A stretch of DNA of 64,000 bases from a virus (IMGVR_UViG_3300022893_000001:8925-72924), one strand, 5' to 3'. Positions 3,907 through 30,026 are shown, counted from the stretch's first letter. A program made the numbers and translations. Notes: generated by a model not told the origin, from the sequence alone.

Positions 3907-6900
3907 TGCCAGGCGAAGTTTTCTACGAAGATTCAGTTGACCGATCGCTCAACTCCAAACTGGGCGAGCGGTTCAGCGTGCTCGACATTTCGCCCATCGC
4001 GGGCAAGGGCGTCGACAACGAGTCCCCGGTGTTCGCCGAAGCCTACGACGACAAGATCAAGAAAGGCGGCGGGGCGATCTACGTGCCAGGCGCGGTGGGG
4101 CCCGGCTACAAACTCACGACGCCTCTCGAGCTCGCCGGCACCGTGCCCATCGAGTTCATTGGAGAGGGCCGCGCCTCGCGCATCTATCGCGGCGCAGACA
4201 TGCCGGCGGGCAAGGGCATGATCGACCTCAATGGTGCGCGCAAGGTCACCTTCCGGCATCTGTCCTTCGACGGCGAAGTGCTCACCTCGGCGCAACTTCT
4301 CTATTCGGAATTCGGGAGCGACCCCGCGCATCCGCTGCTCACCACCAACTCGACGTTCTGGCTGAAGGGCTGCGAGGACATCACCTTTGAGGATTGCGAC
4401 TTCGAACACACGGGCGGCTATGCGGCGTACATCGACGCGCGCTCACTCGACTGCCGGCGCATTCGCTTCGTGCGGTGCAGGTTCCGGAACAACCGCCCGC
4501 ACACGTTCGGCACGGCAGCGGCTGACATGATGGACCCGCTGCGGCGCGTGCGGGGCGTCAAGATCGACTGGGAGCGTCACTTCCCAGACCTCCTCGCCGG
4601 AAGCGCCTCGGTCTACGGCTCGTGGACCGGCGGCATTTTCTATCACAACCAGGCGACCGGCGGCTCCTCGCGTGTGCAGGATCTATCGGTCAACAACTGC
4701 CGGTTCGAGCGCAATACCGGCAACTGCGTCTGGGGCCACGGCTACGGCTTCACGGCGTTCCATCAGCGCATCCACGTCGACTACAACACCTTCTTAGACT
4801 GCGGGCTCGACGGCATCTTGTTCGGCAATGTGGTGGGCGGCTCGGCGATTGGCAACAGTATGCGGCGGATCGGCTACGTCTGCTCGGACGATGCCGGGCC
4901 CAGTGTCCCGCGCTGGCTCCCGAATCTCAACGCGACGGGGATCGACACCTCGGGCGTGGTCAAGCTGGTCACCTACGCCAACAACAATTTCTTGAATGTG
5001 AACGGCGGGGCGATCAACGGCGATGGCTTCGCCTACGGGACCATCACGGGGAACACGATCCGCGTCTCACGGCCGGGCGAGCCCGAATACTCCGAGGACT
5101 TCATTGGTTCGAGCTTCGGGCCCGGCGGCAACGGAGCGAACTGGTCCCAAGGCGTGGTGACCGGCAACACGTCCGACAAAGAAGGCGGGCTCGGCATCAC
5201 GATCTCGGGCAACTTTTGTGACAACCTGGGCGGCACCGCGATTGGACTCTTCGCCGCGCGCAACTGCCAGGCGTCTGCGAACACGATCATCGTGCCCAAT
5301 GCGGCGAACCAACAGCCCATCACTATCGGCGGCATCCTGACTGGGGCAAACCAGATGGCGACGGGCAACATCGTCACCGAGAACCGGATTCAATTCGCGC
5401 CGGCCTCGATAGCGCCCGCGATCTTCGAAGATCCGACCTATCGCGTGTTCACTGCCTCTGATGTCAACAACGTCATCAAGAACTACTGCACGGGCGCGAA
5501 CGTCTTCGAGTTCCAGCGCGATCCCAACTCGCTTTCGACAACGGCGCTGTTCTTCACGACCTCCAGTGTGGCGACCTGGCAGTCGCGTCACGGCATCATG
5601 CGCGAAGGCACCGCTGCCGGCTCGGCGCTGCGGTTCTATGCGCAGGACGCTGATGCATTCGGTTGGCTGCACATGCAGCTTCAGATGTACTGGGCAGTCG
5701 GACAGCGCGGGCCGCTGCTCAATGTCTCCGAGTGGGGCCCCTCCGTTTCGGGCGAGGGCGGCGTAATCACCACCGGCAACGTAACCTCGATGCCGTACGC
5801 GAATGCGATGGCGACGTCGAAGCTCTCGGCGTCAGGGTTCCTGGCAATGGGCGATGCGACGTACTGGGAGGTCGATGCCAACAAGCTCGGATCCGACTGG
5901 GCCCTGCTGCGCTGGGACGGGCTGCTCGGCAAGTGGCAGCAGTCGATCTCGACGACCGGCCCGCTGCCGGGCGGCGTCAGGATCTGGACCGACTTTGCCG
6001 GGAGTTCCAGCGGAGCTACCCATCCCGGCGAGCCGGATCAATCGGTGCAGTTCAACGACGGCGGCATATTCGGCGGCGACGCCTACTTCTCTTATGCCAA
6101 GGTCACACACCAGTTGACGCTGTTCAGCTTCGCCTACAACGGCATCACGATGGTCAACGGCGGTTTCCTCGGCGAGAACGTCAACGTCCGGAAGTACCTC
6201 TCGTTTGTGCCGAAGGCCAGTCTCAGTCCCGCAGGCGCGGATAGTTTCACCGGCAATGCTCTGCTCTATGCCGATAGCCCGTCAGGCCGGCTGCGCCTGG
6301 TCCGGGGCCTCACCTTCGACACCTACGAGGACTACGACTTCCAGTCGCGGAACTACTTCGCCAGCGGCACGGCGAACAACGCGATCCAGGCAGCGTCTGG
6401 TGGCGTCACCGCGCTCACCGCGAACTTCACGCACTCCGACCGCTTCACCGTGAATGTGCCGAACGGCGGCGTGAATGCGAAGTGGCTCATCGCGAACGAT
6501 TTTCTGGTGTTCATGCAGAAACCCACGGCGGCGGTATCCGCGCTGGGCGAGGTGCGGCTCTACGCCGATACCGACAATCTGATGTACATCTCAACGAACG
6601 GGCAACCCTATGGGCCCTTCATGAACTCCAGCCCTGGCGATCCAGAGGGTAGTGTTCAGTACAACCGTGGGGGCAGGTTTGCCGGGAACGCCAACCTCTT
6701 CTGGGACGAGGGAGTCAACCGACTGTACGTCACTTGCGCGTCGACGCTTCCGGCGATCAACGTCGACGGCGGCTGGATCCAATCCGCGGGCGGGTATCAA
6801 ACCGTTAGCGCCGGGCTCGCGGTTCAGGCTCTGAGCGGCGTAATTATCGGCCGGTACCTGGCGACCAACGAGTCACTCCTCTTCAAAGGACTGGCGACGG

Positions 6901-13819: not shown

Positions 13820-16800
13820 ATGGCAGCGCCATCCCTAGCAGCCCCCAAAGGCTTCGATCTCGACGGAGCACGCCGGGAGGGTTACAACGATACCGAGATC
13901 GCGGACTACCTCGCCGGCTCGCGGGGCTTCGATATTGCCGGGGCGCGCAAAGAAGGCTATTCCGATCAAGAGATAATCGGGCACCTCAACAAGCCGAAAG
14001 CGATGGCGTCGACCGTGCCTGGGGCCGAGCGCACCGGCACGCCTGGTCTGCAGAAGACGGCGGCGATCCCGCCCGAGCTCGGCGGGCCTCCCACGCCCAG
14101 GCAGGAACCTCAGCAGCCTACCCCGATGGCACCGCCCGACTATTCGGCGGGCGATCTCTACCAATCCAATCAGCCTACCGACCTTGGTTTCGAGCCAACC
14201 GTGGACCCCTTCTCAACAGGTCCAGCGCGCGCGCCTCGTCCTCAGATGACCCAGCAAGCCGCTGGCGACGAGATGACCCGCGTGGCGCGCGGGGACGTGG
14301 GAGCATCGCCCTATCCGAAGCCAGGCCGCTTGCCGATCCTCGGCGGGCGAGTGGCCCCCAAGCCTTTCTACCAGCTTGAGAAGCCCGGTGTCGCGGGCAT
14401 CCCCGGCACCGAGCGCACCGGGTTGCCCGGCGTCCAATCAGTGGCCCAACCGCGAGTGGAGTATGACCCGCTCGGCGCGCGCCCAGACGCGCAGTATTTA
14501 GCCAAGCTGCACGCCGGTATCCCGGTCGAATCCGACGAGATCCCCAGTGCCCAGTCGATGCCAGGCGCGGCCGGGCTGATCTCGAAAGTCGGTTCACGCA
14601 GCGCACTGGGAGTGGTTAAATCGCTGGGCACCTCCGGGAGACTTCTCGGCGACACGCCCGGCCAGCGCGGCATGATCGGGCTGAAACAAGCGGGCACAGC
14701 CATCGAGGACGTCACGCAACTGATGCTCGATCAGATCCCGCCGCCTACCCTGGAAGAATCCCACCTGATCGGCAGCAAGAACTTCGTTGAGGATCCGAAC
14801 CAGCTTCGCAATCCCTATTACATGGCGAACCTGGGAGCCAATGCCGGCGGCTCGATGGTGGCCTTCATGCTGCCGGAAATTGCGCTCTTCCGAGGCGCTG
14901 CCTTGGCGGCTACCGGCGCGCGCGCTGGCGTGCTCTCTTCGATTGCCGAGACGATGGCGAACTCGGCAGAGGTCTACCAACAGGCCAAAGACGCGGGCAT
15001 GAGCGAGATCGAAGCCGCTGACCTGTTCCGCAAGAACATCCCCCTCGATTTCCCGATCACCTACGGGATGAACCGGCTGGGGATCTTCAACGACAAGCTC
15101 AAGAGCAGAACGGCTCGCGCGGTTCTCAGCCCGGTCACCGAAGCCGCGCAGGAAGTGGGTCAGGCGGTTCCCCAGAACTACTTACTCAAGCAGCCGCTCT
15201 TCAAGGGATGGGAAGAGAACGCCCTCGGCTCCGCGTTCGGCGGTCCAGTCGGGGCGATGATGAGCCCGGTCGACACTTTGATGGGCGCACCGCCCACGCC
15301 GCACCACGACACCACGCAGTACCAACCTGGCCCGCAGGGCCCGCAAACCTCCAGGTACCCGCTGTTAAGCCAGGCTGGAACAGCGGCCCCCGTCGTTCCG
15401 CCCTCGGCCCCGCACCACGAGCTTCCCCCGGACCCATACGAAGGGCCCCTCGACGCCTACGGCGGCGGCGCGGCCCGAGAAGCGCCAGCGGTCCCCACGG
15501 TGTCTCCCTTCCCACGGGTTCAGACTCCCCCGCCTGGCGTCGACCTGGGCCATGTGCGGCCGCTCGACAAGGAAGGGGAGAAGCCGCCAGAGCAGACTGC
15601 GCCGCCGGAACAGAAGCAACCTCCTCCGCCGCCCCCGAATGTGGACGCGGTCTACGAGGACGCGAAGACCTTCGCCGCGGATCTTCCGGAGCTCGGCGTA
15701 GGCGCGATCCGCCGGCAGTTCGGCGTCACCAAGGACGATGCCCGCGTGATCCTCGACCGCATGGTCGCAGACGGGCTCTTCGCGCAGAAGGAATTGAAGG
15801 GCGGCGGCACCTCGTTCGTCAACCTCGCCTGGCAGCGCGGCCAGGCCGGCAAGGGGATGGTGACCAAGGGCAAAGGCGTTGAGGAAGCTGTCTCCGAGTT
15901 CCTTCCGCCGGATGAGGAAGAGGAGGCTCCGCCGCCAGGCCAGCAAGCCCCGCCCCCCGGCCAGCCGCCGCCCTCATCGCTTGAAGATCAACGAAAGGAG
16001 GGGGAAGAACAGAGACAACAAGAGCCGCCAGCATTGGGGCAGGCACCTCCGCCTGCCACAGCGGCCCCTCCCCAGATCGACGCGGGCAAGGTCACCTCGA
16101 TTGAGGAGCGCCCCGAGCGGCCACCCGAGCCCCGGCTCGCCGAAGACGTATTCGAGATGGATCCGAATACCATCGAGGCCGATCCGGTTCGCTTCCAGTT
16201 CAAACGGGATACCGGCGGCAAGGCTGGAGTAGGCGATGAACTGAAAGACCCAGACGTCCCCTGGAACCGCCGGATGGCCGGCACAATCACCGTCTGGAAA
16301 GACCCGGCAGACGGCAAGACCTACGTCGTCAACGGGCACCACCGGCTTGAGAAAGCCCAGCGCATGGGCGTTCCCAGTATCAAAGTGCAGTATTCCACTG
16401 CAAAAACGGCCCAGGAAGCCAGGGCCGAGGGCGCGCTCGACAACATCGCCGAGGGCAGAGGCACCGCCATCGACGCGGCCAAGTTCCTGCGCGACACCGG
16501 CATCACTCCCGAGGAAGCCAAGGGGCGCGGCGTTCACCTCAAAGGCGAAAAGGCCAGGCAGGGTACCGCGCTCGCCAAGCTGCCAGACAGGCTCTTCGAA
16601 CAGATCCTGAGCGGAGACTTGAACGTCGAACGGGCCACGATTATCGGCGAAGGGCTCACCAATCCGGACGACATGCTGGCAGTGGCAGAGGCCGGCTCGA
16701 AGATGAACGACGCCCAGTTGCGGGAACTCATCCGGCGTCAGAGCGGCCGAGCTCGAACCGAAGAGACTCAGGTTTCCCTGTTCGGGGAAGACGTCATCTC

Positions 16801-19800
16801 GAAGAGTCTGATCCGCGAAGAGGCCACGCTGTCGGAAGCCATCCGGAAGCAACTCTCGAACGAGAAGCGGCTGTTCGCCACAGTCGGAACCAAGGGCGCA
16901 GCGACGACGCTTGAACAGGGCGGGAACGTCATCGCTACCGACAAGAACCGCGCCATCGCCGATGCCGCCGCGCAGGCTCTGGAGATCTATGACCGTCTGA
17001 GTCTACAGACTGGTCCGGTTGCCGATGCCTTAGCCGCCGGGGCCAAGGAGATGGCCGGCGGCGCGAACTTTGCTACCGTCAGGGAGAACACTTATGCCGC
17101 AGTCCGAAACGCCGTACAGGAAGCTATCGGCGGAGGAAAAGAATCGCGTGCTGGACAGCCTCAGGCGCAAGATCGAGGCCGGGACGCTGGTACCGGAGAA
17201 CGAGCACCCGCCGGCCCAGCAAAAGCAGCCCCCGCAAAAGTAGAGGAGATCGGCAAGGTCACCTCGGTCGAGCAGGGCGAGACATTCACCGCGCGGATGC
17301 AAGCCGCCGAGACTGCCGATGAGGGGCGGAAGATCCTGGGCGAGGCCGAGAAGGCCATTGGTAGCCTGCAGCAGGACATTGGCGTCACGCCTACAGTTGG
17401 ACAGGTCGAGCCGAATTACTTTGTAGGGCTCCACGTTCTTAACGACAAAACCATCAAGAAGGCGGTCAAAGAGGCCCAGGCCAAAGATCCGGCCAAGGCG
17501 GCGCAACTCGAAGCCATGATGCGCGACGCCTTCCACGCTCGCGAGAAGGAATGGCCGCGCCTCCAGGGCATCGAGGACCAGAGGGAAGCGGATCGCTACG
17601 AGGAATTCAAGGCCCAGCGAGGACCGAAACTCCCGAAGGAACTGACCAAAGCCGCCCCGCGCTACGGCGCATTCGAACTCCAGTTTGAGTCCGATGTTGA
17701 CAAGGCTGCGTACATCACAGCCCAGGCGAAACCCTCCAAGCGGGATGCCGACTATCTCAAATTTGTGATGGACGCCACCGGCAAGTCGGAGGCCGAGGTC
17801 CGGAAGGCAGGAGCCGCCATCCGCGCCTCCCTCAAGACGATAGCGAAGGGCGCTGATCCCGCCGATGGCCCGCTTGAGGTTCCTCTTCATGTCCAGGTGA
17901 AACCGGGCGAGGACTTGGGCCGCGTCTCCTCCGTAGAGGCGAAGCCGAAGCAGACCGGCCCCATGAGCCCGCTCGGCAAGATGGGGCCGGCCAAACCGAA
18001 AGCGGCGGTCTACCACGGGGACGTCTCCGACCGGGAAATCACCGAGGAGAATCTCAAGAACGACGTTGAGACGGGCGTCTGGCGCTTCGCCACCGCGCGC
18101 GGGCGCACCGGCAAGGGCCGCACCGGCACGGTCTACACCAACCAGGCGGGGATGCGCGTCCTGCAAAACGTCTTCGAGATGGAACGGCTTGAGGGCGTCT
18201 CGATGGACGACGTCAATGTCGCCAAGCTGCTCACCGCCCTCGACAAGAATCTCAGTCTGAGGGATCTGAGTCCGGAAGGCCGCGCCGCCCTGAGGGAGTT
18301 CAAGAAGAATCTGAACGAGTACCGGCAGCAGCATGGGCCCGGCGCATCCATCAGCTTTGTTGTGGCCGAGCGCGGCCACGGCATGGGCATCCGCAAGACG
18401 ATCCGCGAGGAACTGATTCACGGCATTCAGCGCATCTTCGGGATTAACTCCGTGGACACCGTCGAAAACATGCTGCTGATGCCGGCCTTTGACAAGGCGT
18501 GGACGTGGCTGGAAGAAAACGGGTACCCAGATATAGGGGCGATGGACGCTCTCGACGAGATTACCGCCAAGGTGCTCGCCGGGGAGGATGTAGGGCTTAC
18601 CCTGGAAGAGCAGCTTACGGTAGCCAAAGCCTACCGAAAGGCGCTGATCGAAGCACACGGTAACGACGTAGTCACACTGTTCCGATACGTCAAAGCCGGC
18701 GAGGTGAAGGAGACATTCCGTGGCACAGAGACGCGAAAAGAAGATGGTGGACGCGCCGCCCCAGTTCAGCAAGAAAGCGGTTTCGAACTTCAACGAGGCG
18801 CAGTTAGCGGCCGAGGCGGCACGGTTAGCCGGGGAGGACGAGGAGAAGGCGTTCGAGAACGCCTTACGCTCTCGGTGGAGCCAGTCGGGCGAATCACCCG
18901 ATTCCTCCGAAGACTCCACGGCGGGTCGCAAGCCCAGTTAGTTCAGGCGTCCAACGGCAAATACTACGTCGTCAAGTTCGCCGACAACCCGCAGGACGCG
19001 CGGGTTCCCGTCAACGAACTGATAGCCGGGCGTCTCTTCCACGCGCTTGGCTTCAAGACCCCGCTGCCGGTGGTTCTCGAATATGGCGGGGACCAGGATC
19101 TGTCCTACGTCTGGCACGGCGGGAAGGAACTGAAGATCAAGGCCGGCCCGGCAATCGCCACCGAGTTCGTCGTCGACCCCGAGCGCGGCGGCAAGGTCTA
19201 TGACGAACTGCGGGACAGCGACTTCTCCAAGGTGACCAACGTTTCCGACCTGGTCAATGCCCTGGTGGTCGACAAGTGGCTCGCCAACTGGGACTCGCGC
19301 CAGGCAGTCTTCCACGCAGACAGTTCCGGCGAAGGCTATGTCGTCACGCTGATCGATCACGGCTTCGTCTTCAACGGCGATAGTTGGCAGTTCAAGACCA
19401 ACGCTTGGTCCGGTGTGTACCACCAGCAGAACGTCTACGATGGCGTCCGGTCGATGGACGACTTTGCCCCCACCATCGAAAAGATCCGGAAGCTCGATCC
19501 GGATTACATCCGTAGCATGTTTGAGGCGGTCCCGGAAGAGTACAAGGAATTCGCCGATGACGAAGACCGGGGGCATCTGGCCGATGAAGTAATCAAACGC
19601 CGCGCCAAGCTCGAAGACTTCATCCTCGAACTCACTAACGTCAAATTCGGCCAGTTCACATTCAACAACTGGGAAGGTCACAAGGCGCGGAGGCCCGGCC
19701 AGGGGTTGCTGTTCTCGCGCAAGAAGAACACGATTCAGGGCGAGCAGAGTCAACTTGGGTTGTTCGACCTGGCCGCGACAGCCGCGACAGGCCAGGTCCA

Positions 19801-22800
19801 GCATGTAACCGCCGAGGGGCTCACCAAGCCCGAAGCGCGCGAGACGGTCGCCTGGCTTGAGAAGGCCGATCTGCCTGGCTCGGTCGAAGCGGCCAAGGTT
19901 CTCGAAGCGGCTGTAGCGGATGCGCCGGCCAAGGAACCCGTCAAGTTTGAGACGACCGAGGCTCCTGCCGAGACGAAGGAGCCCGCTGCCGAGACGGGGA
20001 AACGGGGCGAGCAGACCCGCATCGAGATGGAGGAGCAGCCCGACAACGAGGCGATCCTCCAGGGCGAGCGCCTCACCGCGGCGTTTGCCGGGGAGCTCTC
20101 GCCGGAAGAGAAGCGCCGGAAGCTGAAGCGGGCCGAGGTCGAACAGACCGGGCTCTTCGAGACGAGCGAGGAGAGGGTAGAGCGTCCTGGGCTGCTGTTC
20201 CGCCGGGACGACCGGAAGACCACCAGCGCCCGGGCCATCAAATACCTGGCAGACCTGGCGAGCGGCAAGGTCAAACCCAACTGGTCCCATGCCTACGAGG
20301 CGGTGACCCGGCTCATCACCTCGGCCAAGTCCAAGGAATACAACTCGCCCGATCTGCTCGTCACCGGCCAGGGCTTCGAGAAGAAAGCAGACGGCACCTG
20401 GAAGAACCCGGAAGCCATCAAGCGGGCCGTCAACCTGATCAAGAACTATGCGAACTTCGACGGCAAGAAGTACGCGAACGACGAGGCGCGCATCGAGGCT
20501 TTCGTAGAGCACGTCAAAGAGAACCTGATCTGGCTGTACAAGAAGTACGAGGCGCAGCACGGCGATCTGATCAAGCGGGCCAAGCAGTGGTACGACGGAG
20601 GCCGGAAGCTCGCCGAACGCTACGCCAAGGTGGCCGGCGTCGAACCGCACCAGATGAGCGCGGTGATCGCGGTCCTCTCGCCGAAGAAGGATTGGTTTCA
20701 GAACATAGACCTGGCGCGGCGCATCGCCGATTTCTGGGCGATCCGCCACAAAGTGAAGTGGAACGCCCCGGCGATGGAAAAGGGCTACGCCAAGATGCTC
20801 AAGTCCAAAGCCGAGATGGACGAGGACACTCGGAAGAAGACGGAGAAGCGGAACAAGGTCAGGCGGGCCAGGCTCAACGCCAAGAATTCCAGAGGGAGGA
20901 AGAAGGCTAGGGAAACGGGCGTGGCCTTCGAGGCGGCGGTCTTCGAAGCCGAGGTTTTCACCCCGAGCCGCGACCTGCAGAAAGCGTACGCGCGCATCCG
21001 AGGGAAGGCGTTCGCCGAGATCAAGCGGCCCTATGACCGCGCGGTCTGGATGCGAATGTGGGACGAGGGCCACCACAGCCGGAACTACAACGTCCTGACG
21101 CCCGAGGGCGAGTCGCAGGGCGTCGCAACCTCGACCGCCGAGAAGACCAAGGGCAAACCCCTGACGTCGGTCTGGCAGAGTTACGACGCCGTCACCAAGG
21201 CGCTCTCGATCCTCGATGACGGCTCGATGAAGAACATCAGCGCCAAGCTGGGCAAGCAGCACAAGGTGCGGTCCTTCTACAACAACATCGTCGATCCGGA
21301 CTCGCCGAACCTCCACGTCACCATCGACACCCACGCGGTGGCGGCGGGCTTCCTGCGGCCGCTCGGCCAGTGGGACAAGGAGGTCAAGGACAATCTCAAC
21401 GCGCCCTCCAAGGTGAGCGGCGAATCGCCCACCTACGGTCTGGTGGCGCGGGCCTACCGGGAAGCGGCGGCGGAGATGGGACTCCTGCCGCGCGAATTCC
21501 AGTCCATCACCTGGGAAGCGGTGCGCGGGCTGTTCTCGCCGTCGTTCAAAAAGGGTAATAAAACTGTCATAAAGAACATCTGGATCGATGTTGCGCAAGG
21601 TAAAATTACAGCAGCAGCAGCGAGAGAGAAGATCTATGGCCTTGCAGGAAAAATCGATAGACCGGCATGGGCTGGAGCAATACCGGGACGAGTTTCCGAT
21701 ACTCGAACAGATGTTGGACGACAAGCTGCCGCTGACACGAAGGCAGTACCTGGGCATGGCGCACCCCGGAGCGGATCCGAACGTGCCGCTGGACATGGAA
21801 CTGGAGGCGGAACTGCCGCCGCCGTTCGTGCACCCGAGTCTAAAAGAGGAACTGAACCCCGACGAGGAGTAGGGACCGTCCAGCGGGCCCTCGGCTTTGG
21901 TCCCGGCGGCGTCTGGGGCACTCCCAACGACTGGGTCGAACGCTCGGCCTTCAAATTCGCCACCAAACCCAGTCAGACCGGCTCGGTCTATGCGAACCGA
22001 TCCGCGATGAATCTCATCGGGTATGTCATCAGGGACACCAAGACCACCGGGGCTTCTTTCGGTTCTCAGACAATCCAGATTCTCCTCGACGCCCTCGACG
22101 GCAAGCCCGTCCCCGCTGCCAAGTGGGAGAAGCTCAACCTCAACGACCTGTCTGCCAATGCGCACAAGGAACTGGCGAAGTTCCGCGCACAGATCGTCAA
22201 CTGGAAGAACACGATCCAGGCCGCTGATCCCCAGGCTTCGCTGAACTTCGTGCTGGCGTCTCCAGCCGAGACGATGGAGTACGTCAAGGAGACGGCGAGC
22301 GAAGAGTACATACACGGGGCCCAGCGCCACTCCCCGGTTGGTATGCCGGCCCTCGTGGGGATGATGAAGACCGCGCCCTTCCAGAGCGGCTGGAAGCGTC
22401 TGATCCAGATTGGCTACGACGTCTCGATTGACCCGGCTGACAGCATACAGGACATCCATAGGAAAGCCATCGAGGCTTTCAACGAAGTCACCGCCAAGGT
22501 GCTCAGTGGGCAGGAGCTCGGTCTGTCGCTGGCCGAGCGCATCGAGATCGCCAAAGCCTACCGGAAGGCGCTCATCAACTTCCACGGCAGCGACACCGTC
22601 CTCCTCCGGTTCAAGTACGTCAAAGCGGGGGCGGTGAGGGACGCCTTCTTTGATAAGCAGCCTGCGGCGACCGCCGCGCCCGTGCCCGCTGCCGCTACGA
22701 CGCCGCCGTCGAACTTCCTCAGTTGGGTGCGCCAGGCGGCGGGGATTGCGCCCCGAATTGAGGAGCGCCAGGCACCGGCCCGGCGGATCGAGGAACGTGA

Positions 22801-25800
22801 ACAGACCGAGACGGCCCCGGATGTAATGAAGGCTCGCCGGCCCCCGCAGCAGCCGCAGCAGCCCGCTACCCAGGCGGTCACCACCACCACGCAGCCGCCG
22901 GCTACCGGAGCCGCCGCGCCCGCGATGTCCCGCTCGGCGCGCTTCGACCAACTCAACGAGACGGTAGACCAGACCGGCAAGGAGCGGGACAAGACCCGGT
23001 ACGAGAAGTTCAAGGAGTCGCTGACGACCTTCGGCCACTCGATGACGCGCCAGTTCGTCGACATCCCGGCCGGCGCGACCTACGCCAGTTTCAAGCAGAA
23101 GCTGAACTTCGTATCGAAGGCGCAGGGCACCGCCATCCACAAAGCCGCCCAGGCCATCATCGACCAACTCGAGAAGCTCTCCCCGGCGCAGTACGACGCT
23201 TTCGTTCGCGTCATCTTCTACGACGATCTCTCCGCGCGCGTCAAACAGCAGATCGCGGAGGGTACGCCTGTCCTCGACAAGGACATTGGCTGGGGCATCA
23301 AGGACTCACACGAGCTCTACGCCATGCGGGCCGAGGCGCGCGACCGGGTCCGGAACGATCCACAGATCGTCGAAGCCCTCCGCCAGCGCAAGGCCATGTG
23401 GGCGAAGATCAAGCCCGAGTACATCGCCGCCATGAAGAAGGCGGGCGTCGATATCGAGAAAGCCCTCTCGCGCAAAGACTACTTCCGCCATCGTGTGATC
23501 GAGCATCTCCAAGCCCAGGAGTTACCTGGGAACGAGGGGACCGGAGCCGGCCAGCGGTTCAAGCTGCCCACCGGCCGATCCTGGCTCAAGAAGGCGCACG
23601 TCAACGCCAAGGCGTACTCCATCGACTACATTCGCGCCGAGTTCGAAGTACTCAGCGAGATGATGTACGACACCGAGAGGGCCGGATTCATCGGCTGGTT
23701 GAAGCACGACAGCGGCCACAACATCGCCCCGCGGCTAATGCGCCAGGCGGCGGCGCATAACAAGAAAGTCATCATGCCGACCTTCGTCAAGATGGCGAAG
23801 TATTACAACAAGAAGAATCCCCGCGCGACCCCGGTGACCGCCGAGATGATGTACCAGCGCGTCATGAAGTCGCGCCCGAATGACCCAGGTTGGCGCACGC
23901 GCGTCACCAAGCGGATGGCCGGCGCGGATTACATCGGGAGCCTGGAGAAGGCATACAATACGTTCGCTCTCAAGACCCACCAGATCTATACGGCGGATAA
24001 GCGGGACCACTTCTTCTTTAAGCCCACGATCTCAGACGCGCTCGCCAATGCCATCGAGGCGGCGGGCATGGGTACGGTCCTCGCCAATCAGATCCAGAAG
24101 CTCAAGGTCAAGGGCAAGCGCCGGGGGCAGATGGTCCTGCCGCGTGAAGTCATCGAAACGATGAAAGAGTTCATGCAGCCCCCGTCCGACAAGACGAGTA
24201 AGTGGACCGAGAAGCTCTGGACGAAGCCTATGGGCTGGTGGAAGCAGTCTAAGCTGATCCATCCCGTCTCGGTGGTCAAGTACAACCTCAGGAACCTGTC
24301 GGGCGATCTGGAGCGCGTGGTGATCGCCAACCCGAAAGCACTCAAGATGGTTGGGCGGTCCACAATGGAGATCCGCCAGTTCCTCAAGACCGGCAAGCCG
24401 CCGTCGAAGGAGTTCGAGGCATGGTGGCGGCGCGGCGGCATGGACGCAAACCTCCAGGTAGCCGAGATCGGGGACGTCAACAAACTCAGAAAGCTCAAGC
24501 ACCTCAGAGAGGACTTCCGCTCGACCAGCACGGCGGATAAGGGAATAGACTACGCCGTCGATAAGTGGGAGCGCGTCTGGGGCAAAACGCGACAGTTGAC
24601 CGATTTCCGCGAAGGGATTTTGCGCTACGCCACGTTCCTCGAATATCAACGCCAGATCGCCGCGAATGCCGGCGGGCGTCCGGATAACTTTGGAGCCTCG
24701 CTCCGCGACGAAGTCATGGCGATCCGGAACCATGATGACCGGGCCTACAAACTATCGAATGATCTGATGCTCGCCTACGACGAGGTGTCTGCGCTCGGCC
24801 AGAGACTCCGCCGGAACTGGGTTCCCTTCTGGAGCTTCCAAGAAAAGAACGCCCAGGCATACAAGCGGCTCGTGGGCAACGCCGTCGCGGATGGCAGAAC
24901 CTCGGCGGCGATAGGCTACGCCGCACTCGGAGGCGCTGCCGTGGCGGCGCGCGTGGGTGTCTATACAGCCGCCAAGGTGGGCAAGACGCTCACACTGGCG
25001 CTGGCGCTCAAGACCCTGAGCGAACTGTGGAACAACTACGTCTTCGACGATGAGGAAGACGACCTCCCGGAGAACGTCAGGAAGAGTTCGCATATCATCC
25101 TGGGCCGGGACGCAAATGGCAAAGTGCTGGCCTTCACGCGCGTGGGCACCTCGGACGATCTGCTCGAATGGGGCGGGCTCGAAGCCGCGCCGTACTACGT
25201 GCGCGAGTACCTCAACGGCCGGATGAGCTACGAGGATCTGGCTAAGGAGATCGCCTTCCGACCCTTCGGCGTCCCGATTCCGCTCAAGCCGGCGTTCAAC
25301 AAGATCGCCCAGTCGATCACGCCGTTCATCAAGACGACCGCTGAACTGGCGAGCGGGCGCGCCTGGTTCCCGAACTTCTTTGAACAGCGCGAGATTCGCA
25401 GCCGGGGCGAGTACATCGCCCGCGAGCTCGGTGTGACCGCCCTCTACAAAGCCGCGTGGAGTAAGCCGCAGCCCAAGGTCTTCTCGGTCGACAAGCTGCT
25501 CGACCTCTTCGTATATCGGTACGATCCCGGCGAAACACACTACAACGCTTTCAAATACGATAAGGTCGCAAAATGGGGGGCCGAACATGGCGAAGATCCC
25601 GGCGGCGGGCTCTCGCAGAAGAAAGCGGCCCAGGCGCTCTATGACATCCGCATGGCTATCCGGTATGACGACGAGCGGGCCCAGGCGGCGGCGCTCATCG
25701 CCTACAAAGAAGTCGGCGGCACCAGGGCGAATCTCAAAGAATCGATTGATCGCCTGCACCCGCTCGGGAGCCTCAAGAAATCCCTGCGCGACGAGTACAA

Positions 25801-25942
25801 GAAGTCTCTGAGCCCCGCCGAAGCGATCCAACTGCAGAAGGCGGAACTATTCTGGGTTGAGAACTTCCAGTCCAAGTGGAAGGCGCTCGACCGGGCCGCT
25901 GCGGCCGCGAAGCTGCCCGATAAGAAAGTGAGGAAGAAGTAA
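13820..25942 (+). CDS. Giant (4040 aa) polyvalent internal virion/ejection protein: FtsK-gamma-like wHTH, ParB-like domain, two zincin-like repeats, HipA-like kinase, HhH-glycosylase-like domain, LPD38-like C-terminus
   Basis: N-terminal FDxxGARxEGYxDxEI tandem repeat; YVVNGHHRL; GGSQ..VVKF..NE..NWD..IDHG; KVRSFYNNI..VTIDTHA; PFWSF..LWN C-terminal region. Confidence 0.85.
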   Translation: MAAPSLAAPKGFDLDGARREGYNDTEIADYLAGSRGFDIAGARKEGYSDQEIIGHLNKPKAMASTVPGAERTGTPGLQKTAAIPPELGGPPTPRQEPQQPTPMAPPDYSAGDLYQSNQPTDLGFEPTVDPFSTGPARAPRPQMTQQAAGDEMTRVARGDVGASPYPKPGRLPILGGRVAPKPFYQLEKPGVAGIPGTERTGLPGVQSVAQPRVEYDPLGARPDAQYLAKLHAGIPVESDEIPSAQSMPGAAGLISKVGSRSALGVVKSLGTSGRLLGDTPGQRGMIGLKQAGTAIEDVTQLMLDQIPPPTLEESHLIGSKNFVEDPNQLRNPYYMANLGANAGGSMVAFMLPEIALFRGAALAATGARAGVLSSIAETMANSAEVYQQAKDAGMSEIEAADLFRKNIPLDFPITYGMNRLGIFNDKLKSRTARAVLSPVTEAAQEVGQAVPQNYLLKQPLFKGWEENALGSAFGGPVGAMMSPVDTLMGAPPTPHHDTTQYQPGPQGPQTSRYPLLSQAGTAAPVVPPSAPHHELPPDPYEGPLDAYGGGAAREAPAVPTVSPFPRVQTPPPGVDLGHVRPLDKEGEKPPEQTAPPEQKQPPPPPPNVDAVYEDAKTFAADLPELGVGAIRRQFGVTKDDARVILDRMVADGLFAQKELKGGGTSFVNLAWQRGQAGKGMVTKGKGVEEAVSEFLPPDEEEEAPPPGQQAPPPGQPPPSSLEDQRKEGEEQRQQEPPALGQAPPPATAAPPQIDAGKVTSIEERPERPPEPRLAEDVFEMDPNTIEADPVRFQFKRDTGGKAGVGDELKDPDVPWNRRMAGTITVWKDPADGKTYVVNGHHRLEKAQRMGVPSIKVQYSTAKTAQEARAEGALDNIAEGRGTAIDAAKFLRDTGITPEEAKGRGVHLKGEKARQGTALAKLPDRLFEQILSGDLNVERATIIGEGLTNPDDMLAVAEAGSKMNDAQLRELIRRQSGRARTEETQVSLFGEDVISKSLIREEATLSEAIRKQLSNEKRLFATVGTKGAATTLEQGGNVIATDKNRAIADAAAQALEIYDRLSLQTGPVADALAAGAKEMAGGANFATVRENTYAAVRNAVQEAIGGGKESRAGQPQAQDRGRDAGTGERAPAGPAKAAPAKVEEIGKVTSVEQGETFTARMQAAETADEGRKILGEAEKAIGSLQQDIGVTPTVGQVEPNYFVGLHVLNDKTIKKAVKEAQAKDPAKAAQLEAMMRDAFHAREKEWPRLQGIEDQREADRYEEFKAQRGPKLPKELTKAAPRYGAFELQFESDVDKAAYITAQAKPSKRDADYLKFVMDATGKSEAEVRKAGAAIRASLKTIAKGADPADGPLEVPLHVQVKPGEDLGRVSSVEAKPKQTGPMSPLGKMGPAKPKAAVYHGDVSDREITEENLKNDVETGVWRFATARGRTGKGRTGTVYTNQAGMRVLQNVFEMERLEGVSMDDVNVAKLLTALDKNLSLRDLSPEGRAALREFKKNLNEYRQQHGPGASISFVVAERGHGMGIRKTIREELIHGIQRIFGINSVDTVENMLLMPAFDKAWTWLEENGYPDIGAMDALDEITAKVLAGEDVGLTLEEQLTVAKAYRKALIEAHGNDVVTLFRYVKAGEVKETFRGTETRKEDGGRAAPVQQESGFELQRGAVSGRGGTVSRGGRGEGVRERLTLSVEPVGRITRFLRRLHGGSQAQLVQASNGKYYVVKFADNPQDARVPVNELIAGRLFHALGFKTPLPVVLEYGGDQDLSYVWHGGKELKIKAGPAIATEFVVDPERGGKVYDELRDSDFSKVTNVSDLVNALVVDKWLANWDSRQAVFHADSSGEGYVVTLIDHGFVFNGDSWQFKTNAWSGVYHQQNVYDGVRSMDDFAPTIEKIRKLDPDYIRSMFEAVPEEYKEFADDEDRGHLADEVIKRRAKLEDFILELTNVKFGQFTFNNWEGHKARRPGQGLLFSRKKNTIQGEQSQLGLFDLAATAATGQVQHVTAEGLTKPEARETVAWLEKADLPGSVEAAKVLEAAVADAPAKEPVKFETTEAPAETKEPAAETGKRGEQTRIEMEEQPDNEAILQGERLTAAFAGELSPEEKRRKLKRAEVEQTGLFETSEERVERPGLLFRRDDRKTTSARAIKYLADLASGKVKPNWSHAYEAVTRLITSAKSKEYNSPDLLVTGQGFEKKADGTWKNPEAIKRAVNLIKNYANFDGKKYANDEARIEAFVEHVKENLIWLYKKYEAQHGDLIKRAKQWYDGGRKLAERYAKVAGVEPHQMSAVIAVLSPKKDWFQNIDLARRIADFWAIRHKVKWNAPAMEKGYAKMLKSKAEMDEDTRKKTEKRNKVRRARLNAKNSRGRKKARETGVAFEAAVFEAEVFTPSRDLQKAYARIRGKAFAEIKRPYDRAVWMRMWDEGHHSRNYNVLTPEGESQGVATSTAEKTKGKPLTSVWQSYDAVTKALSILDDGSMKNISAKLGKQHKVRSFYNNIVDPDSPNLHVTIDTHAVAAGFLRPLGQWDKEVKDNLNAPSKVSGESPTYGLVARAYREAAAEMGLLPREFQSITWEAVRGLFSPSFKKGNKTVIKNIWIDVAQGKITAAAAREKIYGLAGKIDRPAWAGAIPGRVSDTRTDVGRQAAADTKAVPGHGAPRSGSERAAGHGTGGGTAAAVRAPESKRGTEPRRGVGTVQRALGFGPGGVWGTPNDWVERSAFKFATKPSQTGSVYANRSAMNLIGYVIRDTKTTGASFGSQTIQILLDALDGKPVPAAKWEKLNLNDLSANAHKELAKFRAQIVNWKNTIQAADPQASLNFVLASPAETMEYVKETASEEYIHGAQRHSPVGMPALVGMMKTAPFQSGWKRLIQIGYDVSIDPADSIQDIHRKAIEAFNEVTAKVLSGQELGLSLAERIEIAKAYRKALINFHGSDTVLLRFKYVKAGAVRDAFFDKQPAATAAPVPAAATTPPSNFLSWVRQAAGIAPRIEERQAPARRIEEREQTETAPDVMKARRPPQQPQQPATQAVTTTTQPPATGAAAPAMSRSARFDQLNETVDQTGKERDKTRYEKFKESLTTFGHSMTRQFVDIPAGATYASFKQKLNFVSKAQGTAIHKAAQAIIDQLEKLSPAQYDAFVRVIFYDDLSARVKQQIAEGTPVLDKDIGWGIKDSHELYAMRAEARDRVRNDPQIVEALRQRKAMWAKIKPEYIAAMKKAGVDIEKALSRKDYFRHRVIEHLQAQELPGNEGTGAGQRFKLPTGRSWLKKAHVNAKAYSIDYIRAEFEVLSEMMYDTERAGFIGWLKHDSGHNIAPRLMRQAAAHNKKVIMPTFVKMAKYYNKKNPRATPVTAEMMYQRVMKSRPNDPGWRTRVTKRMAGADYIGSLEKAYNTFALKTHQIYTADKRDHFFFKPTISDALANAIEAAGMGTVLANQIQKLKVKGKRRGQMVLPREVIETMKEFMQPPSDKTSKWTEKLWTKPMGWWKQSKLIHPVSVVKYNLRNLSGDLERVVIANPKALKMVGRSTMEIRQFLKTGKPPSKEFEAWWRRGGMDANLQVAEIGDVNKLRKLKHLREDFRSTSTADKGIDYAVDKWERVWGKTRQLTDFREGILRYATFLEYQRQIAANAGGRPDNFGASLRDEVMAIRNHDDRAYKLSNDLMLAYDEVSALGQRLRRNWVPFWSFQEKNAQAYKRLVGNAVADGRTSAAIGYAALGGAAVAARVGVYTAAKVGKTLTLALALKTLSELWNNYVFDDEEDDLPENVRKSSHIILGRDANGKVLAFTRVGTSDDLLEWGGLEAAPYYVREYLNGRMSYEDLAKEIAFRPFGVPIPLKPAFNKIAQSITPFIKTTAELASGRAWFPNFFEQREIRSRGEYIARELGVTALYKAAWSKPQPKVFSVDKLLDLFVYRYDPGETHYNAFKYDKVAKWGAEHGEDPGGGLSQKKAAQALYDIRMAIRYDDERAQAAALIAYKEVGGTRANLKESIDRLHPLGSLKKSLRDEYKKSLSPAEAIQLQKAELFWVENFQSKWKALDRAAAAAKLPDKKVRKK
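17094..17243 (+). CDS. Nested +1-frame ORF 1 (49 aa, MPQSETPYRKLSAEEKNRVLDSLRRKIEAG...)
   Basis: AGGGAG SD at 17081-17086, ATG 17094, TAG 17241-17243; amphipathic helix; main frame here is R/G/A/P filler. Confidence 0.6.
   Translation: MPQSETPYRKLSAEEKNRVLDSLRRKIEAGTLVPENEHPPAQQKQPPQK
18720..18941 (+). CDS. Nested +1-frame ORF 2 (73 aa) overlapping the start of the kinase domain
   Basis: AAGGAG SD at 18707-18712, GTG 18720; helical core FNEAQLAAEAARLAGEDEEKAFENALRSRW; main frame is Gly/Arg filler. Confidence 0.6.
   Translation: MAQRREKKMVDAPPQFSKKAVSNFNEAQLAAEAARLAGEDEEKAFENALRSRWSQSGESPDSSEDSTAGRKPS
21636..21872 (+). CDS. Nested +1-frame ORF 3 (78 aa, acidic, ...LPLTRRQYLGMAHP...ELEAELPPPF...)
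   Basis: ATG 21636 after purine-rich GAGAGAAG; genome-typical G/C-ending codons in this frame, many A/T-ending codons and filler residues in main frame. Confidence 0.7.
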   Translation: MALQEKSIDRHGLEQYRDEFPILEQMLDDKLPLTRRQYLGMAHPGADPNVPLDMELEAELPPPFVHPSLKEELNPDEE

Positions 25943-26522: not shown

Positions 26523-29500
26523 GTGAAGAGAACCGTCGAGCTTGAGGCGATCATCGTTCGCCCGAATCTGCTTGTGACCCTGAACGGGTCAACCGATTTC
26601 GTCATCTCTCTGCAGGCGGGTCAACCGATACCCGGCCCGGTTGGTCCCCCCGGTCCCCAAGGCATACCCGGCCCGGTTGGTCCCCAAGGCATACCCGGAA
26701 ACACGGGCCCCAAAGGCGATAAAGGCGATACCGGAAGCACCGGAGCCACGGGCAGTACCGGAGCCACCGGAAGCCAGGGCCCCCCAGGCAATACAGGCCC
26801 CCAAGGCATACCCGGTGTCCCCGGCGAAATTGGTCCGGTTGGTCCCGCTGGCAGCACCGGCAGCACTGGAGCCACGGGCCCCCAAGGCATTCAAGGCATA
26901 CCCGGAGTCCCCGGAACGCAAGGCCCCCAAGGCATCCAAGGCAACCCCGGAGCCAAAGGTGATACCGGCACCGCCGGCACGCCCGGCGCTCCTGGTGCGA
27001 TCTCGATTGTGCAGGATGAAGGCATCGCGGTCCCAGTTCAGAACACGCTGAACTTCGTGGGGGCGGGCGTCACGGTCACCAACGATGCGCCTGGCACTCG
27101 AACTCTCATCACCATCCCCGGCGCAACCGCTGGCGCGAATCAGACGCCCTGGACGAGCGACATAGACGCCGCGAACTTCAACCTCCATAGCGCGGGCGGG
27201 ATTGGCCTGGGCGTAGGAACCTCGGCGCAAGTTAGCGTTGGAATCACTGTCGGCGGCACGTCGATCTTCGACAGCCTCTCGCAACTCAACGGACTCGCGG
27301 CCGGCTGGGCCGGCATCTCTCTGCAAAGCGACGGCGGCAAGGGGCTGACCCTGAGAGTCCAGGGTTCGGCCAGAGCTTTTCCGAATATCGCCGAGCTCGC
27401 GCTCAACAACGTCCCGCTCGTCTTCAGGATGGATAACAACGAGCGGATGAGGCTCATCCCCTCAGGGCTGCTCGGCATCGGCAAAGTCCCGGCCACTTAC
27501 AGGCTGGAGGTGGCTGGAGACGTGGACGTGACCGGAACCTACAGGGTTAACGGTGTCCCCTTCACCTCTGGTCAACCCCAGACGCCTTGGGCGCAGGACA
27601 TCAACGCCGCCACCTTCAAGCTCAACAACTCTGGCGGGATCGGCATAGGCGTGGCCTCGCCCACTCAGGCTCTGCACGTAGCCAAAGCAGACAACAACGA
27701 CGTTATCCTGGTTTCCGGCTCTAGCACCAGCGTGTACATGGCGTTCCAGTCGAACGCCACGTCTGGCCGCATCACGCACTTTAATGGCTCGGCATGGGGG
27801 AATATTCTCCTCGCCCCGTTCGGCGGAAAAGTGGGCATCGGCATCCCCGCTACGATCAACTACCCGCTCGACGTTGTAGGTGATGTCAACATCTCTGCCG
27901 GCAGTGTCTACCGCATCAACGGTGTCCCGCTTAGTACCGGCGTGCCTACTTCCAGGCAAGTGATTGCCGGGACCGGCATGTCTGGCGGCGGCGCACTGAC
28001 TGCGGATGTAACTTTGAATGCGCTGCCCATGATCGCGAGCGGCGCGACGGGGCGCGGCGGTACTGTACCCACGCCAGGAGCGACGGCGGGATCGACTAAG
28101 TTCCTCCGCGAGGACGCAACGTGGGGAGTCCCGGTGGGCGCGGCCCAGACGCCTTGGCTCACCGATATTAACGGCAACGGCAAGATCCTCTACAGTGTCG
28201 CTGCCATAGGCATTCAGGTAGCCAGCCCACAGGTTGCCCTGCAAATAGCCGGTCAAATCTGGTCAACCGCCGACACAGTCATCCTGGAATACGCCGCCCA
28301 TAGTAGCGGGTACGGGCGGGTAGGATGCATGAGCTTCCATCCGTTGACACTCTGGACTAACCAATTGGAGCGGATGCGGATCACCGCCGCAGGCGCTATC
28401 GGCATCGGCAACAGCACTCCATTCTCGAAGTTGAGTTTCGGCAACACGGACCCCACCTCTGCATCCCGTATCGCTTTCTACGAGGCACCGGACGGACTAA
28501 GTTTTCGTGGCATCGGCATGTGCAACCCGACAGGAGCCACCTGGGGGGTGGCTATCTGGGCACACGGCACCCTTGCACCAACGGAAACCAATGCCAGAGT
28601 ATTCGTTCAGGACAACGGCAACGTGGGGATCGGCACGACGGCACCCGCGCACGCGCTCGACATTGTAGGCAACTGCAACATCACCGGCCAGTATCTAGTC
28701 AATGGCGTCCCCATCAGCACTGGTGGCGCGGCCCAAACCCCGTGGACCTCCAACATTGACGGTGGCGGGTTCAGCCTGTCCAATGTCGCGCGGATCTCCA
28801 CCACCAGCACTCTCGCACTCGTCATGGACTCTCCCGCCGCTACCGCCTGCCAGATGTACTTCCAGACCGCAGGCGCAAACAAGTGGGCAGTCGGCAAAGG
28901 CGCAGGCGACAACAGCGACGACTACAACATCTACTCCTTTATCGCTCCCGGCATTATTGTGCGAGTCAAACCGGATGGCAATTTTATTGTTACCGGCCCA
29001 ATGTCGTTCAATACATCCATTATCGGCAACGGTAAGGCCGTCGCAGAGACATCGGATGCCTATCTGCGTCTCAACCAGTCCAACCAGTTCAGCCTCGGTA
29101 TCTGGCTCGGTCCCAGTGCCGTAAAGATGGCTGGCGGGCATTTATACATAGGCACCAACGGCGCCGACACCGGATCTATTGACATTTCCGCCACTGCTTC
29201 GGACACCGTGAACCGAATCACCATAAACGGCAATGCCGGTGGCGGCATCATATGCAGAAACCGCATCACCCTGTCTAGTGATAACGTCACCGGGACATAT
29301 GCGTCAGCCGCCATGGAAGTTCGCCAGACCAATGAGACGCAAGGTGTAGCTGGCGATAACACCTATGCTCCCCGTATTGGCTTTCACTGGACCGGGGCGG
29401 TAGCTTCGCAAATCGGCATGGACGGCAACGGCATAATCCGCACGTTCAACAATCCAGGGACGGGATATGAGCAATTTGCCTGCTCCTACCTGACTGCGTA

Positions 29501-30026
29501 TGGCAACGTCAACGTCACGGGCGGCTACTACGTCAATGGCGTAGCCCTCGCCACGGGCCAAGCCCAGACGCCGTGGGCACAGGCGATAAATGGCAATGGG
29601 CAAACTCTCACCGGAGTGTCCGGTATAGGCATCAACTCCGGCTTGGTCAACTCGCACAAGCTAACCGTCATCCCCGCTGCCAATCCCGGTACTGGTACCG
29701 TCGGGGATTACCCTGTTGTCATTGGGGAGTCCTCAAACAACAGCGTCTACCGCCTATGCTTCGGCTATGGCGTGTACTACTCGGGCGTTTATAGCGGGTC
29801 GATCCAGGTGTATAGTAACAGTGCCCCGGGGTTCCTGTACCTGAACCACATGCCGGGGGCAGCAGCAGGCGTTTGCATAGGAGTCCCCGCCTATACGTCT
29901 CTCACCCAGGCTTGGGTCAAGAACATGACCGTGTGCATGGCCCTCGACGACACCGGTAACAGGCTGTACTTCTATGTGCGTAACAATGGCGCGGTAATGA
30001 AAACCGGTTACGTTACCCTAGTGTAG
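26523..30026 (+). CDS. Collagen-containing fibre protein with five QTPW repeat modules
   Basis: About 41 consecutive Gly-X-Y triplets; repeated GxVGIG and LDVxG..Y.VNGV shaft motifs; QTPW at 27141, 27579, 28146, 28734, 29565. Confidence 0.85.
26634..27002 (+). repeat. Collagen-like (GXY)n region
   Basis: Uninterrupted G-X-Y triplets in translation. Confidence 0.95.

Follow-up and report, generated by a model that had tools for sequence, protein, structure and literature searches.

The DNA analysed here is a 64,000 nt stretch (the window; positions 8925-72924 of IMGVR_UViG_3300022893_000001) of a 72.9-kb viral record in IMG/VR, which has a completeness rating of 99% and a G+C content of about 62%. 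It carries a giant gene for a polyvalent-type virion protein, P0001, and three small open reading frames (ORFs), ORF1, ORF2 and ORF3, were found nested in the +1 frame of this gene (Table 1). Judged from sequence comparisons, these are very probably real genes that are translated separately from the gene that contains them, as each has selection or family conservation on the nested frame, its own start, a main frame that has been kept open and linkage to one domain. The explanation that we favour, and regard as probable, is that domain cassettes have been joined in such a way that the giant frame now runs through small partner genes.

A sequence-only reading of the window had placed all three ORFs in the +1 frame of the giant gene and at domain junctions, and both points held when the frames and the main-frame domain matches were checked. 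Each ORF is fully enclosed in a longer one that is read from the same strand in a different frame. Their length and number were rejected as evidence because they match a synonymous-shuffle null, there being 17 +1 ORFs of at least 49 amino acids (aa) in the giant gene compared with 16.0 ± 2.4 in the shuffles. The longest +1 ORF was 117 aa against an expected 187 aa, and 11 other +1 ORFs equal or exceed ORF1 in length.

The codon signal is frame-specific and strong, with the gene-like pattern in the +1 frame, as the sequence-only reading had noted in the codons of ORF3. The mean G+C contents at codon positions 1, 2 and 3 (GC1/2/3) of the giant gene are 0.65/0.45/0.79. For the ORF1 segment the values were 0.65/0.42/0.85 in the nested frame and 0.84/0.67/0.42 in the main frame, for ORF2 0.60/0.50/0.79 versus 0.79/0.61/0.50, and for ORF3, where the codon signal was strongest, 0.73/0.31/0.77 versus 0.76/0.73/0.31. 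A main-frame GC3 of 0.31 across 78 codons cannot arise from amino-acid composition alone, and the synonymous sites are set by the second codon positions of the other frame. A sliding GC-phase scan of the whole giant gene flagged 17075-17285, 18725-18905 and 21605-21905, together with a weak Pro-rich patch at 15935-16085, and a codon-usage likelihood scan flagged the ORF1-3 segments and none besides. The 117-aa +1 ORF that spans the Pro-rich patch (15879-16232) was rejected as a nested gene, its codons not being gene-like.

When the frame scan was applied as a control to the stop-to-stop ORFs of the window, it was noisy through upstream extensions and shadow ORFs. The sole internal match in a real gene fell in a collagen-like GXY repeat (26641-27051) of the tail-fibre gene at 26523-30026, where a +1 ORF of 136 codons gives a codon signal in the alternative frame; this was classed as a false positive of the scan and not a nested gene. 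That ORF1-3 are chance frames, produced by low-complexity linkers rich in G/A/R/P in a gene with 62% G+C, would agree with the shuffle counts and lengths, and with the finding that the collagen-like repeat also trips the scan. However, main-frame GC3 values of 0.31-0.50 cannot be explained by amino-acid composition alone, and the conserved families, the ratios of non-synonymous to synonymous substitution rates (dN/dS) and the conserved Shine-Dalgarno (SD) sequences and starts described below make this explanation extremely improbable and, for practical purposes, refuted.

There are four sites in the 12.1-kb giant gene where a strong SD is followed after 5-9 nt by ATG or GTG, and two of these are the starts of ORF1 and ORF2, both with a 7-nt spacer. 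The remaining two, at 24941 and 24421, are an in-frame GTG (GGAGG, 7 nt) that could yield a 333-aa C-terminal product and a +2-frame ATG that opens a 39-codon ORF with no codon signal. The last +1-frame stop before ORF2, a TGA at 18705-18707, overlaps the SD and lies four codons upstream of the GTG. The start of ORF3 was assigned as in Table 1 because a stop in the related contig L002 removes a longer extension from 21588.

One giant protein with 83% identity to P0001 was found by protein search (P0002, encoded by JGI contig L002). No close relative of the giant gene was found among phages by megablast, and no related loci were found in viral-contig searches with aa 761-1627 or with the kinase, or in genome-contig scans with alignments of the kinase and of five ORF3 sequences, while a metagenome scan identified only three distant loci, none with a nested-peptide match. 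Aligned with L002, the window is a mosaic, the two being 95-100% identical outside two blocks, 16037-17216 and 18716-19886. The first block comprises the ParB-like domain and nearly all of ORF1, and the second starts at ORF2 codon 2 and extends through the kinase; from these limits, ORF1 and ORF2 are each at the edge of a block that has been exchanged together with a domain.

All three ORFs are kept in L002. ORF1 is strongly diverged there and open, with indels of 3, 6 and 12 nt, the +1 codon signature is present, and an AAGGAG, the 7-nt spacer and the ATG are kept amid otherwise diverged sequence. The product of ORF2 shares 81% aa identity with its L002 counterpart, and 18 of the 43 substitutions are synonymous in the nested frame where 9.5 were expected (binomial P 0.003). 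For the ORF2 region, the nested frame has a dN/dS ratio (omega) of 0.24-0.32, as against 0.90-1.03 for the main frame, which points to purifying selection on the nested frame while the overlapping main frame is neutral.

Relatives of the ParB-like domain were found on 32 viral contigs. A profile hidden Markov model (HMM) of ORF1, built from the window, L002 and L023, was run against 9228 six-frame ORFs, and the best non-seed matches (L026, L025, L027 and L028) were all +1-frame ORFs immediately 3' of the ParB-like domain. A second round added L044 at an E value of 8e-4, with L040 and L045 matching weakly. Family members therefore occupy this position in L023/24, L025, L026, L027, L028 and L044, and weakly in L040 and L045, and the family is nested behind ParB-like domains in about ten phage lineages. 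It was missing from the low-G+C group and from the stand-alone ParB-like proteins among the relatives examined.

The core of the ORF1 family is P-x-Y-x-K-L-S-x-E-x-x-x-x-V-L-x-x-L, and most members have an AGGAG-like SD 5-9 nt upstream of the ATG. SD-like motifs were seen upstream of the homologous nested ATGs in L023, L027, L031, L040, L045 and L047. Conservation of the start signals, on which the sequence-only reading had partly staked its case, thus extends for ORF1 to L002 and distant relatives, and for ORF2 to L002, where the SD is the same.

A HMMER search of 1.84e9 representative proteins with ORF3 (E<=1e-3) found 12 matches of 53-90 aa, one identical (78 aa) and 11 with 39-57% identity. 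The family motif in their alignment (A1) is YPILxxMxxxGxPLTRExYLxLxxPGxDPxxPLxxELEAELPPEFRxP. When the six-frame translations of every locus retrieved were searched with an HMM of A1, the family was found at the DUF7178 3' end every time, in 8 further loci. In L010/11, L016 (the same sequence as L014/15), L018 and L021/22 the small gene is nested in the +1 frame of main frames of 1245 to >2061 codons. In L019 and L020 the DUF7178 gene ends in a stop, and the small gene is separate and overlaps only its 3' end. In L017, the small gene is tail-to-tail with an 834-aa Hydrolase_2+DUF7178 gene on the opposite strand. A +1 ORF that weakly resembles ORF3 is present in a cultured relative, Rhodobacteraceae phage LS06-2018-MD07 (L004 4004-4246). 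As the domain downstream of the small gene varies between loci, the partner of ORF3 is likely to be DUF7178.

Over the aligned core of the ORF3 family, the nested frame has identities of 0.28-0.44, and the main frame, at 0.09-0.27, does no better than the third frame, in a comparison that left out the free-standing trio L017/L019/L020. Codons 1 to 15-20 of ORF3 overlap a conserved tail of DUF7178, AGKIDRPAWAG (AGGINxPxWAG in relatives), and the nested N-termini are variable there. In L018 (1463-1490), main-frame AGGIN is encoded by GCAGGAGGCATCAATG, and the same bases give an AGGAGG SD and the nested ATG. Strong SDs are also present for the family genes in L017 and L021.

Programmed +1 ribosomal frameshifting from the giant frame would, instead of separate small proteins, give truncated isoforms consisting of a domain and a small-peptide tail. 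The nested segments are stop-ended, stand directly after (ORF1 and ORF3) or directly before (ORF2) a domain and are all in the same +1 register, as such products would be, and SD-like sequences within genes can stimulate frameshifting (prfB). However, the ATG and GTG codons are conserved with an SD at initiation spacing, and a +1-frame TGA stands four codons upstream of the GTG of ORF2. The ORF3 family, moreover, forms separate genes in L019 and L020 and in L017 is encoded on the strand opposite the DUF7178 gene, and neither a slippery sequence nor a stop-codon shift site came to light. Frameshifting is improbable in view of the conserved starts, the stop upstream of ORF2 and the existence of separate and convergent genes of the ORF3 family.

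The main frame has also been retained. Synonymous resampling of the nested peptides gave the chance of an open main frame as 0.31, 0.085 and 0.047 for ORF1, ORF2 and ORF3, respectively, and 0.009-0.17 in relatives. As the main frame is nevertheless open in the window and in L002, L009, L010, L012, L016, L018 and L021, read-through appears to have been selected, and the segments to be truly dual-coding. Compensated frameshifts or assembly indels were rejected as a source of the layout, there being no in-frame counterpart of the nested peptides in the distant giant homologs P0003-P0005; as independent assemblies also share the layout, an assembly error is excluded.

Alternatively, the nested frames could be fossils, small genes swallowed in a gene fusion and no longer expressed, with a residual codon signature. 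The free-standing forms back a fusion origin, and ORF3 has a weak SD in this window. However, nesting has been kept in lineages whose flanking domains are just 32-47% identical, the family motifs, starts and open frames are intact, and ORF2 has the mark of purifying selection against a neutral overlapping main frame. It is therefore very improbable that the small genes have fallen silent.

The kinase linked to ORF2 has 64 shorter relatives, nearly all of 245-299 aa with the Pfam domain PF20613 (HipA_2). A HipB-type partner, which the pairing of HipA-type kinases with small neutralising proteins had suggested, was not recovered in ORF2, which has no helix-turn-helix (HTH) and no Pfam family above noise. 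Stand-alone HipA_2 kinase genes (277 aa, on bacterial contigs) keep a divergently oriented neighbour of 72-74 aa that belongs to no known family (L055 2216-2434, L056 2186-2410 and L058 1687-1908), those of L055 and L056 being 75% identical. As this neighbour has no similarity to ORF2, the parallel is positional only. In the kinase module itself, L002 (about 5400-5450) has LIDNAF for the LIDHGF of the window (about 19330-19400) and NAD for NWD, and these substitutions in putative catalytic and Mg-binding motifs may make the two kinases differ in activity.

DUF7178 was modelled with AlphaFold2 (AF2; predicted local distance difference test, pLDDT, 78.5; predicted template modelling score, pTM, 0.76). 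Foldseek found nothing significant with the model, and neither did a comparison of the DUF7178 profile with PDB sequences. The top three VIA-align matches had Z scores of 9.4, 9.3 and 9.2, with root-mean-square deviations of 5.0, 3.8 and 4.3 over 228, 184 and 216 aligned residues. Queuine-salvage DUF2419 proteins scored 9.4 and 9.2, 8-oxoguanine glycosylases 9.3 and 7.6, and 3-methyladenine glycosylases, EndoIII and MutY 7.2 to 5.6. About 17 of the 22 top rows belong to the HhH-GPD DNA glycosylase superfamily, and a DNA-glycosylase-like (HhH-GPD) fold is predicted for DUF7178 with moderate confidence.

The AF2 model of ORF3 (pLDDT 80.4, pTM 0.67) has five short helices and found no match in PDB fold searches. 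The family is mostly acidic, with isoelectric points (pI) mostly of 4.2-5.9. A palindrome, TTGCGCAA, stands upstream of ORF3 and occurs five times in the window (21591, 30689, 30722, 37838 and 61340), where 1.37 copies were expected and five were reached in 1/100 shuffles; the copy before ORF3 is a possible operator, promoter element or control site. A sigma-70 scan of 16900-22000 found no promoter.

These observations can be combined as follows. The giant gene would have been built by joining domain cassettes, and would have lengthened as its frame was fused with, and read through, small partner genes. In three places where cassettes meet, the giant frame would cross a small gene that was already there, shifted by one base, so that the shared DNA encodes both a compositionally odd, unconserved and probably disordered linker and a complete small gene in the +1 frame, the latter being translated independently by internal initiation. 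ORF1 would pair with the upstream ParB-like domain, ORF2 with the downstream HipA_2-like kinase and ORF3 with the upstream DUF7178. Each small protein would bind its cognate domain in the producing cell, and its most likely role would be to hold that domain inactive, or to escort it, until the giant protein is packaged.

The sequence-only reading had proposed effector cassettes captured in frame, each a domain with its small neutralising gene. The part that stands is the linkage, as the small genes travel with the neighbouring domain: ORF3 and DUF7178 are found nested, free or convergent, ORF1 follows the ParB-like domain, and ORF1 and ORF2 are at the edges of exchange blocks. Capture in frame fits the free-standing forms in L019 and L020, where ORF3 homologs do occur as free genes beside stand-alone DUF7178 genes. 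ORF2, for its part, has no HipB-like HTH.

The chances that the small proteins are physical partners of the adjacent domains appear evenly balanced, and a specific inhibitor or immunity role is doubtful. A somewhat unlikely alternative is that they help in assembly or packaging, as chaperones or adaptors needed for folding of the adjacent domain or for loading the procapsid with the giant protein, in the manner of the helpers in the Dar system of phage P1. The same linkage data would serve this explanation equally well, the giant gene is in the structural module beside tail-fibre genes, and the small proteins have no toxin-immunity or antitoxin signature. Polyvalent proteins are, in addition, reported to be packaged and processed (PMC5512222). 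On the other side, the acidity of ORF3 beside a DNA-glycosylase-like fold would also suit a DNA-mimic inhibitor.

Several points weigh against the joining of domains with small partner genes as set out above. Of the dN/dS comparisons in both frames that the sequence-only reading had looked to, that for ORF2 revealed selection on the nested frame, from one relative (L002) only; ORF1 is saturated between the window and L002, at about 1 in both frames, and ORF3, being identical in L002, has no selection signal of its own here. The ATG of ORF3 is conserved, but only a weak SD-like purine run precedes it in this window. ORF2 has no family, as a near-length word search and the Atlas found no relatives outside L002. 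In Pfam, PHROG and PDB sequence searches, and for ORF3 also in fold searches, none of the small proteins could be assigned to a known family or fold of inhibitors, antitoxins or chaperones, and self-protection may be unnecessary for a lytic phage.

Table 1. Features of the giant gene and its nested ORFs (window coordinates)
Feature	Coordinates	Strand	Details
Giant gene	13820..25942	+	uninterrupted frame, 4040 codons; product P0001, 4040 aa, polyvalent-type virion protein
ParB-like domain	16148..17092	+	aa 777-1091, NGHHR motif; C-terminal part of PHROG 21, E 5e-59
ORF1 SD AGGGAG	17081..17086	+	7 nt upstream of ATG
ORF1	17094..17243	+	49 aa, +1 frame, pI 9.3, ATG start; putative companion of ParB-like domain
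Repeat domain copy 1	18059..18718	+	aa 1414-1633, REELIHGIQR motif; paralogue at aa 2703-2943
ORF2 SD AAGGAG	18707..18712	+	7 nt upstream of GTG; identical in L002
ORF2	18720..18941	+	73 aa, +1 frame, pI 5.4, GTG start; 5' edge of kinase module
HipA_2-like kinase domain	18941..19714	+	aa 1708-1965, PHROG 3162
DUF7178 domain	20237..21694	+	aa 2140-2625; Pfam PF23802, E 8e-26
Palindrome TTGCGCAA	21591..21598	+	38 nt upstream of ORF3 ATG, within giant gene
ORF3	21636..21872	+	78 aa, +1 frame, pI 4.5, ATG start; putative companion of DUF7178

P0001 contains several unrelated enzyme or effector domains, a ParB-like domain, a HipA_2-like kinase, DUF7178 and two copies of a repeat domain, and matched Pfam DUF7178 and PHROG 21, 3842 and 3162. 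The giant gene is in the structural module, with tail-fibre-related genes directly 3'. The ParB label is based on the NGHHR motif and on Iyer et al. 2017 (PMC5512222), there being no Pfam match, and the segment found nothing significant among PDB sequences. A Pfam scan found no LPD or MuF match in P0001 itself. Distant giant relatives with DUF7178 have LPD22, LPD38, ART-PolyVal and MuF_C, and P0001 was for this reason placed among the polyvalent proteins (PMC5512222). The two copies of the repeat domain share 36% identity across 247 aa, and in L014/L016 the gene of the ORF3 family is followed by a domain resembling them.

The motif G[KR]V[TS]S[IV]E is present three times in P0001, at aa 756, 1145 and 1367 (about 16085, 17252 and 17918 in the window), and copies 1 and 2 mark the two edges of the exchanged block of the ParB-like domain and ORF1. 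These copies could be recombination joints or protease processing sites. An antisense ORF of 1409 codons (18938-23167, minus strand) lies opposite the giant gene; the antisense frame has only 17 stops across 12 kb and is a typical shadow frame of a high-GC3 gene.

Neither the three peptides, compared with cultured phages by tblastn, nor the small proteins, compared with Pfam, PHROGs and PDB sequences, found a significant match, and two of the three nested ORFs belong to conserved families that have no Pfam or PHROG entry. The codon-usage scan identified one +1 segment in each of the distant giant genes L009, L010 and L012. That in L009 (6451-6663; 70 codons with gene-like usage) lies at a different junction of a giant polyvalent gene with ART-PolyVal, LPD38 and MuF_C, is unrelated to ORF1-3 and belongs to a different family. 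It may be ventured, with less than even confidence, that as a general rule giant polyvalent genes fuse domain and partner genes by out-of-register read-through, and that their linkers are by-products which hide a set of unannotated small proteins, each the inhibitor or escort of a single injected enzyme, the three pairs here being examples.

As gene callers forbid genes within genes, small proteins of this kind are missing from phage annotation. The layout offers a concrete route for the growth of polyvalent proteins, fusion by read-through across small genes, which would also explain their strange R/G/A/P linkers. The small genes would mark domains that need a dedicated partner and so provide a handle on effector domains of unknown function such as DUF7178, and their products are candidates for naturally occurring inhibitors or chaperones of kinases and of enzymes that act on DNA. 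Full-text literature searches (DUF7178/PF23802; nested or embedded phage genes) found no published description of this layout.

Out-of-frame embedded genes are classical in phages, examples being Rz1 in Rz (the lambda spanins) and, in phiX174, E in D and B in A. ORF1-3 resemble Rz1 in that a complete small gene with its own start is entirely contained, in the +1 frame, in a larger one, and the embedded, overlapped and separated layouts that the Rz1/Rz pair takes across phages are matched here by ORF3 and DUF7178. Unlike in Rz1/Rz and phiX174, the overlap here falls on an unconserved linker of the host gene's product and not on a functional domain, and one host gene contains three unrelated nested genes. 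The partners, unlike those of Rz1/Rz, are enzyme domains of a virion-delivered protein and not lysis proteins, and the Rz1/Rz and phiX174 genes have no sequence or fold similarity to ORF1-3.

Small acidic phage proteins that inhibit DNA glycosylases are known, namely Ugi (PBS1/2) and p56 (phi29). ORF3 is likewise small, acidic and tied to a predicted DNA-glycosylase-like domain. However, its presumed target would be the phage's own domain and not the host uracil-DNA glycosylase (UDG), and neither its sequence nor its fold matched any solved structure. That ORF3 inhibits a glycosylase is at present a guess by analogy.

As in polymorphic toxin-immunity and HipB-HipA cassettes, a small gene is tightly linked to, and swapped with, an enzyme or effector domain, and the stand-alone HipA_2 kinases, like HipB-HipA pairs, also keep a small neighbour gene. 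Unlike in those systems, the small genes are overprinted and not downstream, and ORF2, unlike HipB, is without an HTH.

The closest comparison for P0001 as a whole is with the polyvalent proteins described by Iyer, Burroughs, Anand, de Souza and Aravind 2017 (PMC5512222). Like them, P0001 is a giant multi-domain protein of the virion module, with ParB-like, kinase and repeated, putatively peptidase-like domains, and modules are exchanged between its relatives. A term search of that paper found no mention of overlapping genes or frameshifts, and its single use of 'reading frame' refers to neighbouring cassette genes. Relative to this account, the giant gene described here adds nested companion genes and a proposed read-through origin for the linkers between domains.

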